Of a DNA stretch of 64,000 nucleotides, positions 31,668 through 33,816 are shown piece by piece; the first letter of the stretch is position 1, and the number at the start of each line of letters is the position of its first letter. Origin of the DNA: Escherichia phage vB_EcoM_PTE-Eco15. Below the pieces are notes generated by a model. It made no database searches. It worked only from the letters and a program-made list of their open reading frames with translations, and had not been told where the DNA came from. The position numbers and the translations under genes are program-made. The stretch lies in sequence record PQ352352.2; one strand, 5' to 3'.

Positions 31668-32156
31668 ATGAATATATTTGAAATGTTACGTATAGATGAA
31701 GGTCTTAGACTTAAAATCTATAAAGACACAGAAGGTTATTACACTATTGGCATTGGTCATTTGCTTACCAAAAGTCCATCACTTAGTGTTGCCAAATCTG
31801 AATTAGATAAAGCTATTGGACGTAATTGCAATGGTGTAATTACAAAAGATGAGGCTGAAAAACTCTTCAATCAGGATGTTGATGCTGCTGTTCGCGGAAT
31901 TCTGAGAAATGCTAAATTAAAACCAGTTTATGATTCTCTTGATGCTGTTCGCCGCTGTGCATTGATTAATATGGTTTTTCAAATGGGAGAAACCGGCGTG
32001 GCAGGATTTACTAATTCTTTACGTATGCTCCAACAAAAACGCTGGGATGAAGCAGCAGTAAATCTAGCCCAATCTAAATGGTATCGTCAGACACCTAATC
32101 GCGCGAAACGCGTAATCTCAACATTTAAAACAGGAACTTGGAAAGCGTATATATGA
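31668..32156 (+). CDS. e: Endolysin (T4 lysozyme)
   Basis: [33 protein letters not shown]... is near-identical to T4 lysozyme as remembered; 162 aa. Confidence 0.97.
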
Positions 32157-32434
32157 AAACATATAGTGAATTTTTATCAGAATCTATTCTTAACGAAGCT
32201 ACTGACACATTTGCAACTAAGCTAGGTGCAGCTTTGGTTGAAGCCGAAAGTCTATTAGCACGTATTTCTGAACTTGCTAGTAAGATAGATACTCGCAAAT
32301 TTGATCGCACCAGTGATATCGTTAAGCTTGAAGCCTTGTTGCGTATGTGCGATAAACCGGAAGAAATCGCTAAGAACGGCTCGCTGATGAAACAACGTCT
32401 TGAAAAATATATTTCAGGCGCTTCAGAAAAATAG
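32153..32434 (+). CDS. Internal-protein-like (capsid-targeted) protein
   Basis: 93 aa starting [10 protein letters not shown] (CTS-like); ATGA overlap with e. Confidence 0.6.
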
Positions 32435-32436
32435 TT

Positions 32437-32466
32437 GTTTACTTCCTCCAAGGGTTTTGATACTAT
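32437..32466 (+). promoter_or_regulatory. T4-type early promoter (for denV)
   Basis: GTTTACT, 17-bp spacer, TACTAT. Confidence 0.6.
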
Positions 32467-32493
32467 ACATTCATCAACTACTTGGAGGAAATT

Positions 32494-32907
32494 ATGACTC
32501 GTATCAATTTAACACTTGTTTCTGAACTGACCGACCAACATCTTATGGCTGAGTATCGTGAATTACCACGCGTATTTGGTGCAGTCCGTAAACATGTTCA
32601 AAACGGTAAACGTGTAAAGGATTTTAAAATCTCTCCAACATTTATCTTAGGCACAGGTCACGTAACATTCTTTTACGACAAACTTGAATTTTTACGTTTA
32701 CGACAAATCGAGCTAATCGCCGAATGCTTGAAACGTGGTTTCAAAATCAAGGACACGACAGTCCAGGATATTTCCGACATCCCTGCCGAATTTCGTAATA
32801 ATTATGTCCCGTCCGAAGCGTCCATTGCGATAAGTCAAGCACGCTTAGATGAAAAAATTGCTCAACGTCCGACTTGGTACAAATACTATGGTAAATCAAT
32901 TTACTAA
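32494..32907 (+). CDS. denV: Endonuclease V (pyrimidine dimer DNA glycosylase)
   Basis: 137 aa [12 protein letters not shown]...[11 protein letters not shown], near-identical to T4 DenV as remembered; GGAGG RBS. Confidence 0.95.
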
Positions 32908-32913
32908 GGAAAA

Positions 32914-33174
32914 ATGAAAATGTATCAAGAATTTATCGCTGAAGCAGATGCCAAAGGCCCCAAATTTAAAGTTAAAGCTTTCGTTGGTGATGCCGAAGAT
33001 TTTGGCTCATTAAAACGTAATGGGTATTTTTTCTTAGGTGGTGATGGTAAAGAAATCAACACCTATGCAAAACGCAGTGAAATTGCTTATGTTGCTGCAA
33101 GTCCTAAAGTAGATGTTGACGATATTGGATACGATTTTAACAACTTCGGAATTATTTCTGGCGGTGAAGCTTAA
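32914..33174 (+). CDS. Internal-protein-like (capsid-targeted) protein
   Basis: 86 aa starting MKMYQEFIAEA (CTS). Confidence 0.65.
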   Translation: MKMYQEFIAEADAKGPKFKVKAFVGDAEDFGSLKRNGYFFLGGDGKEINTYAKRSEIAYVAASPKVDVDDIGYDFNNFGIISGGEA

Positions 33175-33177
33175 ACG

Positions 33178-33207
33178 GTTTACGCTTAAGTATTAATATG
33201 GTATAAT
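33178..33207 (+). promoter_or_regulatory. T4-type early promoter
   Basis: GTTTACG, 17-bp spacer, TATAAT. Confidence 0.6.
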
Positions 33208-33237
33208 TACTCTATCAAAACAAACAAGGAAACAAAA

Positions 33238-33816
33238 ATGAAAACGTATAAAGAATTTATCGCTGAAGCTTCTGTGGAAAAGGCCAAAGGCATTAATAAA
33301 GATGAGTGGACCTATCGATCGGGAAACGGCTTTGACCCTAAAACAGCTCCTATTGAACGATACTTAGCTACAAAGGCTTCTGACTTTAAAGCTTTCGCTT
33401 GGGAAGGACTTCGCTGGCGTACCGATTTAAATATTGAAGTTGACGGACTTAAATTTGCTCATATTGAAGATGTTGTTGCTAGTAACTTAGACGCAGCTTT
33501 TGTTAAAGCCGACAGTGATCTTCGTCGCTGGAATTTAAAACTGTTCTCTAAACAAAAAGGCCCGAAGTTTGTGCCTAAAGCCGGTAAATGGGTCATTGAT
33601 AATAAATTAGCTAAGGCTGTCAACTACGCTGGTCTTGAATTCGCTAAGCACAAATCATCATGGAAAGGTCTTGATGCAATGGCTTTCCGTAAAGAATTTG
33701 CCGATGTTATGGCTAAAGGCGGCTTTAAGGCAGAAATAGATACCTCTAAAGGTACGTTTAAGGACGCTAATGTTCAGTACGCTTATGCCGTTGCTAATGC
33801 AGCCCGTGGTAATTAA
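33238..33816 (+). CDS. Internal protein, IPIII-like
   Basis: 192 aa starting MKTYKEFIAEA (CTS); size close to T4 IPIII (about 194 aa). Confidence 0.65.
   Translation: MKTYKEFIAEASVEKAKGINKDEWTYRSGNGFDPKTAPIERYLATKASDFKAFAWEGLRWRTDLNIEVDGLKFAHIEDVVASNLDAAFVKADSDLRRWNLKLFSKQKGPKFVPKAGKWVIDNKLAKAVNYAGLEFAKHKSSWKGLDAMAFRKEFADVMAKGGFKAEIDTSKGTFKDANVQYAYAVANAARGN

Follow-up and report, generated by a model that had tools for sequence, protein, structure and literature searches.

A probable RB69-type internal-protein locus around denV in Escherichia phage vB_EcoM_PTE-Eco15, with a chimeric ipIII gene

Internal proteins travel in the phage head and enter the host together with the DNA, ahead of any phage gene expression, as a first-line counter-defence. 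The region between the lysozyme gene e and vs.8 in Escherichia phage vB_EcoM_PTE-Eco15 raises the question of which internal-protein (ip) genes it carries and how these came to be arranged around denV. A first-pass annotation of the window (the whole stretch of 64,000 nt analyzed here, from record PQ352352.2) had placed three ORFs with a capsid-targeting sequence (CTS) at 32153, 32914 and 33238, with denV nested among them, in an order unlike that of T4; it took this as consistent with ip loci being recombination hot spots that acquire injected effectors. The features considered below are:

27239..27819, + strand: fourth leader cassette (36-nt terminator copy, late promoter, ORF, second terminator copy)
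31634-31641 and 31647-31654, + strand: two T4 late-promoter boxes TATAAATA upstream of e, identified by motif
31668..32156, + strand: lysozyme gene e (162 aa), which anchors the variable region on its conserved left side; homology to T4 stops at 32151
32153..32434, + strand: ipA, 93-aa internal protein of the Ip5/RB69ORF127c family (phrog_3499)
32438..32490, + strand: putative early promoter of the PeSL type before denV, read from the sequence
32494..32907, + strand: denV, pyrimidine-dimer glycosylase (137 aa; Pfam Pyr_excise, E=3e-14)
32914..33174, + strand: ipB, 86-aa internal protein of the RB69ORF125c type (phrog_2667 'internal head protein' and phrog_35655)
33179..33207, + strand: putative early sigma-70-type promoter before ipIII (TTTACG, 17-nt spacer, TATAAT with TG)
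33238..33816, + strand: ipIII orthologue (192 aa; phrog_5341, E=6e-118)
33856..33985, + strand: conserved non-coding block just upstream of vs.8, a candidate structured RNA

Coordinates, strand and N-termini of the three ORFs were confirmed, all three being intact and full length, and denV indeed lies between the first and the second. The stop codon of e overlaps the ATG of ipA (ATGA). A six-frame scan of the 64 kb for MK.Y.[EQ]F[IL] returned exactly four matches, each opening an ORF, i.e., these three and ORF 27318, in agreement with the four CTS genes originally counted in the window; the chance level, from 200 shuffles, averaged 0.005 matches and never exceeded 1. The targeting determinants (Y or F at residue 4, F at residue 7) are present in all four (MKTYSEF, MKMYQEF, MKTYKEF and MKTYAQF). 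As defined for IPIII, Y4 and F7 serve targeting, and I/L8 and E10 serve processing (PMC9026906); ipA, ipB and ipIII possess all of these residues. Their leaders end in a gp21 motif of the form L/I-x-E, namely LSE10 plus LNE15 in ipA, IAE10 in ipB (MKMYQEFIAE/A, the slash marking the putative cut) and IAE10 in IPIII (MKTYKEFIAE/A); the gp21 gene itself lies outside the window. All three products are homologous to a named or annotated internal protein, and the RefSeq annotation of phage Lutter, which is 99.3% identical to the window, lists all three as internal head or virion proteins. They sit in the e to vs.8 interval, which is one of the known ip loci, the other being 57B to trna.4. None of the four leader proteins matched a Pfam family, a PDB sequence search gave no match for ipA, ipB or IPIII, and a large protein database returned shallow, near-identical families only, from which no deep profiles could be built. 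An assembly artefact or chimeric contig was ruled out by the identical layout in 61 records at a coverage of at least 80%. We also rejected an antisense ORF at 32125-32451 (108 aa, TTG start), which lies wholly opposite a conserved coding gene and is annotated in no record.

The gene order of the window (e, ipA, denV, ipB, ipIII, then vs.8) differs from that of T4, whose record reads nudE, e, ipIII, ipII, denV, vs.8, just as the first-pass annotation had given it for the genes from e to denV; ipIII lies between e and ipII in T4, but downstream of denV in the window. RB69, on the other hand, is collinear with the window between nudE and the third ip leader, at about 86% nucleotide identity: its e overlaps a 93-aa ip gene (RB69ORF127c), followed by denV and the 86-aa RB69ORF125c, which is 92% identical to ipB. 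The denV gene is likewise an RB69-type allele, its homology block being 77% identical to T4 at the nucleotide level, compared with the roughly 86% that the entire nudE-to-ipIII block shares with RB69. Where the window has ipIII, RB69 has two other leader genes, ORF124c and ORF123c, before vs.8. Among 36 denV loci from IMG/VR, leader genes occur on both sides of denV in 19, solely upstream of it in 9 and solely downstream in 3, with IPIII homologues found in either slot. denV is a fixed gene flanked by two ip cassette slots; here, the left slot holds ipA and the right one ipB and the IPIII orthologue. In T6, no ip gene is present at the e-vs.8 locus. The observation that the order departs from T4 is therefore correct but ordinary, as the arrangement is common among sequenced T4-like phages, including RB69.

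The third ORF had been described as IPIII-like, which understates the relationship, as its product shares 95% amino acid identity with T4 IPIII (NP_049735) over 192 aa and its leader is identical to that of T4 except for Q5K. The gene is a chimera. It agrees with RB69 ORF124c at 100% over bases 1-23 and the preceding 58 nt and is T4 ipIII-like from there on (92.8% nt), with RB69 collinearity reaching base 30 of the gene and T4 ipIII homology beginning 12 nt before the ATG. Judged from these alignments, the promoter, the 5' UTR and the first 8 codons stem from an RB69 ORF124c-type cassette instead of T4 ipIII, the remainder from a T4-like gene. Since the switch from RB69 to T4 homology falls within the leader, recombination took place inside the leader-coding sequence, which supports the proposed hot-spot character of ip loci. 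This idea is not new and has already been published, reportedly by Repoila in 1994 and by Silas in 2025. When leader genes with unrelated mature parts were compared (2,451 pairs), nucleotide identity was 81% over the first 30 nt, against 40% in the preceding 20 nt and 30% further downstream. The window offers a clean example, resolved to the base, of how cassettes are exchanged by way of the leader-coding sequence, with no new principle involved. In contrast to the PeSL cassettes (Arbiol 2010; Comeau 2014), the junction in the window lies inside the leader-coding sequence and not in a promoter element.

PeSL-type elements are nonetheless represented in the region. The PeSL consensus of PST and T4 is TTTACW-N17-TAYWAT (PMC4122927), and elements of this type precede both denV and ipIII in the window; early promoters before these two genes are also a feature of T4. 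The putative denV promoter fits the consensus with TTTACT (32438-32443), a 17-nt spacer and TACTAT (32461-32466), and is nested in a 10-bp inverted repeat, i.e., a potential stem-loop, formed by TTCCTCCAAG (32443-32452) and CTTGGAGGAA (32481-32490), the latter 3' arm carrying the denV Shine-Dalgarno sequence; a promoter is annotated at the corresponding place in Lutter. The promoter region of ipIII is 100% identical to that upstream of RB69 ORF124c. Judged by promoter motifs, the genes may be expressed late, when proheads assemble, TATAAATA being found upstream of e and of ORF 27318. The boxes before e are the likely source of late transcripts that would read through into the ip genes; no terminator-like site was found on the + strand in 31100-34200. 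At the right-hand end, the block at 33856..33985 forms the conserved anchor of the variable region. In T4, this block is annotated as codons 1-40 of vs.8; Rfam gave no family for the region at the gathering threshold or at E up to 10.

As to what the locus does, we regard it as highly probable that the e-vs.8 region is an RB69-type version of the 'ipII/ipIII' accessory locus, whose products are directed to the prohead, processed by gp21 and, once injected, act against GmrSD, and whose cassettes are exchanged among phages. If T4 is taken as the model, the capsid-targeting sequence of about 10 residues would bind each protein to the prohead scaffolding core, and gp21 would cut after L/I-x-E, at IAE10 in ipB and IPIII and most likely at LNE15 in ipA. 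The mature proteins would stay in the head with the DNA and, after injection, block host defences that attack the DNA on entry, chiefly type IV restriction enzymes of the GmrSD family, each Ip being specific for one enzyme variant. Enzymes of this family cut glucosyl-hmC DNA. Cassettes would be swapped between co-infecting relatives by homologous recombination, for which the nearly identical leader-coding 30 nt, PeSL-type intergenic elements and the conserved flanks, the 3' end of e on one side and the block before vs.8 on the other, may provide the substrates. Injected effectors, as invoked in the first-pass annotation, have been established experimentally only for T4 Ip1-3, which inhibit one GmrSD variant each, a different one in every case; T4 depends on Ip3 on E. 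coli ECOR17, whose GmrSD-type enzyme this protein inhibits (PMC12373910, PMC9391042). By close orthology, the window IPIII is expected to have T4 Ip3 activity, whereas for ipA and ipB we infer such a function, as we do packaging, cleavage and injection.

A match of at least 95% identity to ipA was found as the best match in 232 phage records, and the gene adjoins e in 19 of the 19 such records listed. The protein matches phrog_3499 ('internal head protein') with E=2e-46 and is 48-51% identical to Ip5 of T2, PP01 and AR1; the T6 record links Ip5 with RB69ORF127c. Ip5 of T2, T6 and PP01 belongs to the same length class and has a second cleavage motif at residue 15 as well (ITE15 versus LNE15 in ipA), but is encoded at the 57B-trna.4 locus, whereas ipA directly follows e. 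After its first 10 residues, the ipA leader continues as /SILNE/A. No variation is seen at LNE15 among the aligned close homologues, and the motif is kept in RB69, whose ipA copy has a diverged leader, and in L018/L019, both lacking E10. ipB was found in 217 phage records, including RB69, VR7 (70%) and Salmonella STP4-a (67%). Its best AF2 model is a small alpha/beta fold (pLDDT 83, pTM 0.70), for which Foldseek returned no match with E below 0.6 in the PDB and only orthologues from T4-like phages in BFVD. With T4 IPII, ipA and ipB share the leader alone. A GmrSD target of these two proteins is an extrapolation, because neither is similar to Ip1-3 beyond the leader; neither showed homology to any characterised inhibitor in sequence searches or, for ipB, structure searches. 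Leader logic, size class and kind of locus nevertheless match those of T4 IpI and IpII, making a functional analogy likely (PMC12373910).

One might argue instead that ipA and ipB, packaged as part of the head core, serve structure or DNA condensation, as scaffold accessories or by neutralising charge, and have no anti-defence function. The T4 internal proteins were long seen as core components residing amid the DNA, with some 1000 copies in each head (PMC3012670), IPIII has been proposed to act in head morphogenesis (PMC9026906), and the low-confidence AF2 model of ipA (pTM 0.36) is an all-helical three-helix structure. We nevertheless consider a purely structural role improbable. Specific anti-restriction targets have by now been assigned to each of the three T4 Ips (PMC12373910), and the presence of ipA and ipB varies between phages, which, along with the lack of an ip gene here in T6, fits accessory host-range factors rather than structural needs. 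Moreover, mature ipB is mildly acidic (pI 4.9), which fits poorly with neutralisation of DNA charge. As the T4 internal proteins computed here and the window IPIII are basic, this acidity also counts against the reading of ipB as an Ip1-3-like protein.

The fourth leader gene, ORF 27318-27779 (153 aa), lies in neither the e-vs.8 nor the 57B-trna.4 locus; the classical ipI slot between 57B and trna.4 (24544-24613) is empty. In the alignment with T4, it appears as a 510-bp insertion downstream of tRNA-Arg and an rnaD/rnaC-homologous stretch and before the e.8 region, with the late promoter TATAAATA at 27272-27279 and the terminator copies at 27239-27274 and 27784-27819. This leader-gene locus is not annotated as an internal protein in the sampled public records: the ORF matches phrog_2280 ('unknown function') only, and of 40 records sampled, all those with an annotation call it 'hypothetical'. 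Its leader, MKTYAQFLMTE/A, lacks a canonical L-x-E, as a 4-residue deletion has removed the LNE10 seen in homologues and left MTE11.

With this altered leader, ORF 27318 could be a remnant in decay that has lost packaging or processing, and ipB is a second candidate for such a fate. ipB is dispensable or decaying in some lineages, because it is split by a frameshift in the Lutter record, where a run of six T is extended to seven, and is truncated in UFV13 and other clusters. For the phage studied here, we deem decay of any of the leader ORFs very unlikely: none of the four is interrupted or shortened, an AAGGA-type ribosome-binding site can be seen before ipB and ipIII, and ipB is 100% identical to an intact copy of the gene in IME340, with conservation of 62-92% among genera. 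The Lutter frameshift, located in a homopolymer, may reflect a sequencing error. ORF 27318 is preceded by a late promoter of its own, and the same MTE leader occurs in one other cluster representative (P0020).

Going one step further, we see about even chances that ipA, ipB and the 27318 protein are injected inhibitors of defences beyond those countered by T4 Ip1-3, such as other GmrSD/BrxU variants or different first-response systems. If so, T-even phages would have at least three ip cassette loci and not the two usually cited, the third being a late-promoter/ORF/terminator module that came in through a duplication of the terminator after the rnaC-homologous stretch. The three proteins are candidates for anti-defence screens. 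The cassette content of a T4-like phage probably helps to set which wild E. coli and Shigella strains it can infect, and as such would matter when phages are chosen for therapy.

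The segment belongs to a Tequatrovirus (T4-like) genome, in T4 minus orientation, and its portion from 31100 to 34100 is 99.3% identical to Escherichia phage vB_EcoM_Lutter; 918 phage records match this stretch. The gene order is as follows, with ipA and ipB as our handles for the two short internal-protein (Ip) genes flanking denV:

31190–31630, + strand: nudE
31668–32156, + strand: lysozyme gene e
32153–32434, + strand: ipA, 93 aa
32494–32907, + strand: denV, Pfam Pyr_excise
32914–33174, + strand: ipB, 86 aa
33238–33816, + strand: ipIII orthologue, 192 aa
177-nt gap between ipIII and the vs.8-like ORF
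33994–34533, + strand: vs.8-like ORF, 179 aa, with vs.7 and vs.6 next downstream

The first-pass annotation had assigned capsid-targeting leaders to ORFs 32153, 32914 and 33238, and their N-termini indeed read as described, the third being MKTYKEFIAE. It had also counted four leader genes in the window, which agrees with a six-frame scan of the 64 kb using the leader pattern: four matches, all at ORF starts, where about 0.005 would be expected in shuffled sequence, the fourth being ORF 27318–27779. The T4 order had been given correctly (nudE, e, ipIII, ipII, denV, vs.8 in the T4 reference), and the window differs from it as claimed, with e, ipA, denV, ipB, ipIII and the vs.8-like ORF.

The product of ORF 33238 shares 183 of 192 residues with T4 IPIII and is its orthologue, while ipA and ipB have nothing in common with T4 IPII past the 11-residue leader. 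In PHROGs, ipA and ipB fall into two ‘internal head protein’ families, phrog_3499 and phrog_2667 respectively, and IPIII belongs to phrog_5341. The best match of ipA has at least 95% identity in 232 phage records, and it directly follows e in all 19 of these that were listed; its identity to ip5, which T2, PP01 and AR1 carry at their ipI locus, is 48–51%, and the T6 record treats Ip5 and RB69ORF127c as equivalent. ipB is present in 217 records, including RB69 (92%), VR7 (70%) and Salmonella phages (62–67%). The predicted mature proteins are of 8.6–9.2 kDa (pI 6.3–8.1) for ipA, 8.1 kDa (pI 4.9) for ipB and 20.3 kDa (pI 9.6) for IPIII. AF2 modeled ipA as helical with low confidence and ipB, fairly confidently, as a small alpha/beta fold (pLDDT 83 for the best model, the other four being poorer); searches for structural neighbours of ipB found none that was informative. 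In Lutter (L001 3321–3576), the short ‘internal head protein’ CDSs gp126 and gp125 represent a single ipB gene split by a T6-to-T7 homopolymer insertion, which could reflect either a sequencing error or a real frameshift; ipB is intact in the window.

In RB69, nudE and e are followed by an ip gene of 93 aa that overlaps the e stop, then by denV, an ip gene of 86 aa, two further leader genes (ORF124c, MKTYKEFIAE; ORF123c, MKTYQEFIAA) and vs.8. We fetched 80 denV loci from IMG/VR and analyzed the 36 closest. Leader genes occupied both sides of denV in 19 loci, only the downstream side in three, and only the upstream side (the T4 type) in nine, this last class including a fifth jumbo locus, L037, whose single upstream match is a membrane-like ORF. 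Five loci lacked a leader gene beside denV, four of them in genomes of 346–378 kb without the e...vs.8 frame and the fifth, L017, with that frame present. Within these 36 loci, IPIII homologues were found on one side of denV or the other depending on the locus, T4 IPII homologues on the upstream side only. T2 carries e and ip4 without denV, and in T6 regB directly follows e. Given the varied denV neighbours, the IPIII homologues on either side and the T2 and T6 states, the locus is a frame of e, slot 1, denV, slot 2 and vs.8 with free cassette content, T4 being one variant of many; the window layout is common, not exceptional.

Homology to T4 extends through nudE and e, ends at 32151 just ahead of ipA, returns at only 77% nucleotide identity in the denV block (32425–32903), then at 93% over ipIII (33226–33835), and restarts on the vs.8 side at 33856 (96%). 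Collinearity with RB69 extends from 31179 to 33267, where base 30 of the third ip gene marks the exact end of the leader. Window ipIII and RB69 ORF124c share, without a mismatch, the 58 nt preceding the gene and the first 23 coding bases, and K5 of MKTYKEFIAE is an RB69-type signature; past these 23 bases window ipIII is T4 ipIII-like. Since an RB69-identical 5’ part is joined to a T4-like remainder, window ipIII is a recombinant with the junction within the leader-coding sequence, which supports the first-pass view of ip loci as recombination hot spots. A comparison of 75 leader genes from denV loci gave 2,451 pairs with unrelated mature parts; here the first 30 nt were 81% identical, the 20 nt upstream 40% and the next 90 nt 30%. 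Leader-sequence exchange is what Repoila et al. 1994 proposed (cited in PMC3012670 and PMC12373910). The window likewise has promoter/stem-loop elements of the kind reported by Comeau, Arbiol and Krisch (PMC4122927): an early promoter ahead of denV (TTTACT-N17-TACTAT) sits within an inverted repeat of 10 bp, the 3’ arm of which contains the denV Shine–Dalgarno sequence, and a TTTACG-N17-TATAAT promoter precedes ipIII.

Targeting involves residues 4 and 7 of the T4 IPIII leader, and processing residues 8 and 10, with the protease gp21 cleaving after L/I-x-E (PMC9026906); ipA, ipB and window IPIII all conform in both respects. ipA has two candidate sites, LSE10 and LNE15. Because LNE15 is retained in the ipA homologues of RB69 and loci L018/L019 that lack E10, and the homologue Ip5 has ITE15 at this position, we predict that mature ipA starts at A16. 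Given that late promoter boxes precede e (31634, 31647) and that the + strand shows no terminator-like site from there to 34200, late transcripts could span ipA, ipB and ipIII; translation of ipA is probably coupled to e via the ATGA overlap. Each of T4 Ip1, Ip2 and Ip3 inhibits a single GmrSD-type restriction enzyme, with no cross-protection (PMC12373910), and loss of ipIII abolishes growth on ECOR17 but is rescued by leaderless protein in trans (PMC9391042). At 95% identity, window IPIII should act as T4 Ip3 does; for ipA and ipB, we infer an anti-defence role from where the genes lie, their leaders and their patchy distribution.

The fourth leader gene, ORF 27318 (153 aa), is not at the ipI locus but follows tRNA-Arg and a stretch aligning to T4 rnaD/rnaC. 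In the region 27239–27819 (+ strand), it forms a 510-bp insertion relative to T4, bracketed by two copies of a 36-nt terminator hairpin (27239–27274 and 27784–27819) and equipped with its own late promoter, TATAAATA, at 27272. Homologues occur in 511 phage records and are ‘hypothetical’ in all annotated ones of 40 sampled; four of six aligned start MK[ST]Y..FLNE..L[NT]E|A (the bar marking the predicted cut). In the window copy, a 4-residue deletion in the leader takes out the canonical LNE10 and leaves MTE11, so its processing is uncertain. The literature knows two Ip loci (PMC12373910); that of ORF 27318 seems to be a third, which is under-annotated. Between 57B (24088–24543) and trna.4 (24614), the classical ipI slot, filled by ipI in T4, an 85-aa internal head protein in Lutter, ip5+ip7 in T2 and ip5+ip6 in T6, is empty in the window (24544–24613), a clean deletion relative to T4. 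The T4 intergenic regions on either side of ipI resemble each other, and the empty slot looks like a recombinational deletion between them. In its tRNA genes (25569–26927: Gln, Leu, Gly, Pro, Ser, Thr, Met/Ile-CAU, Arg) the window departs from Lutter, to which it is otherwise nearly identical and which has Leu, Gly, Pro, Ser, Ile-CAU, Tyr, Asn and Arg together with an HNH endonuclease; it is thus a mosaic rather than Lutter itself. Between tRNA-Met and tRNA-Arg, a GIY-YIG (segB-like) homing-endonuclease frame (26181–26847) is apparently split into overlapping ORFs of 142 and 110 aa, which, with translations judged by eye, suggests a frameshift.

Just 5’ of vs.8, a block of ~130 nt (~33856–33985, + strand) is a candidate structured RNA. 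It is 76–100% identical across T4-like loci, better conserved than the flanking genes, even where vs.8 protein identity is only ~40%. It shows 1-nt indels and, in most loci, stops in all frames; in T4 it is annotated, apparently wrongly, as the first 40 codons of vs.8. In 45 IMG/VR stretches, each contig has a single copy of the 21-nt core, in 37 beside at least one of e, denV and vs.8, in four as likely chance matches within coding sequence (L093, L100, L101, L119) and in four in other contexts (L116, L121, L125, L131); in L121, another phage contig, the core motif ACCUGUAAYAAGGUCNAGCCC...GGUAA comes after a tRNA cluster, and a terminator follows it in L121 and L125. Extended through GGTAA, the pattern has one occurrence in 596 Gb of bacterial genomes. 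Under a hand-built 7-helix model, 95.7% of cells are paired, versus 24–44% in slid controls. Covariation is modest but exceeds that of shuffles (0.107 versus 0.060, reached by 0 of 500), some changes are compensatory, and the core-closing pair takes four forms (UA, UG, CG, AU); the test is lenient, as the model derives from the same sequences. The window copy has an unremarkable minimum free energy (z = −0.14), and Rfam has no family for the block. The downstream vs.8 core protein weakly matches the ATPase part of the large terminase (phrog_2, E = 3e-5); Pfam Terminase_6N and AAA_14 matches are both below threshold.

Since near-identical genes are deposited and annotated, RB69 has the same order and the hot-spot reading is published, every element of the ip-cassette finding is already known in kind. 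Particular to the window is the base-resolved RB69/T4 junction in the leader, and ipA, ipB and ORF 27318 are reasonable candidates for anti-defence screens.
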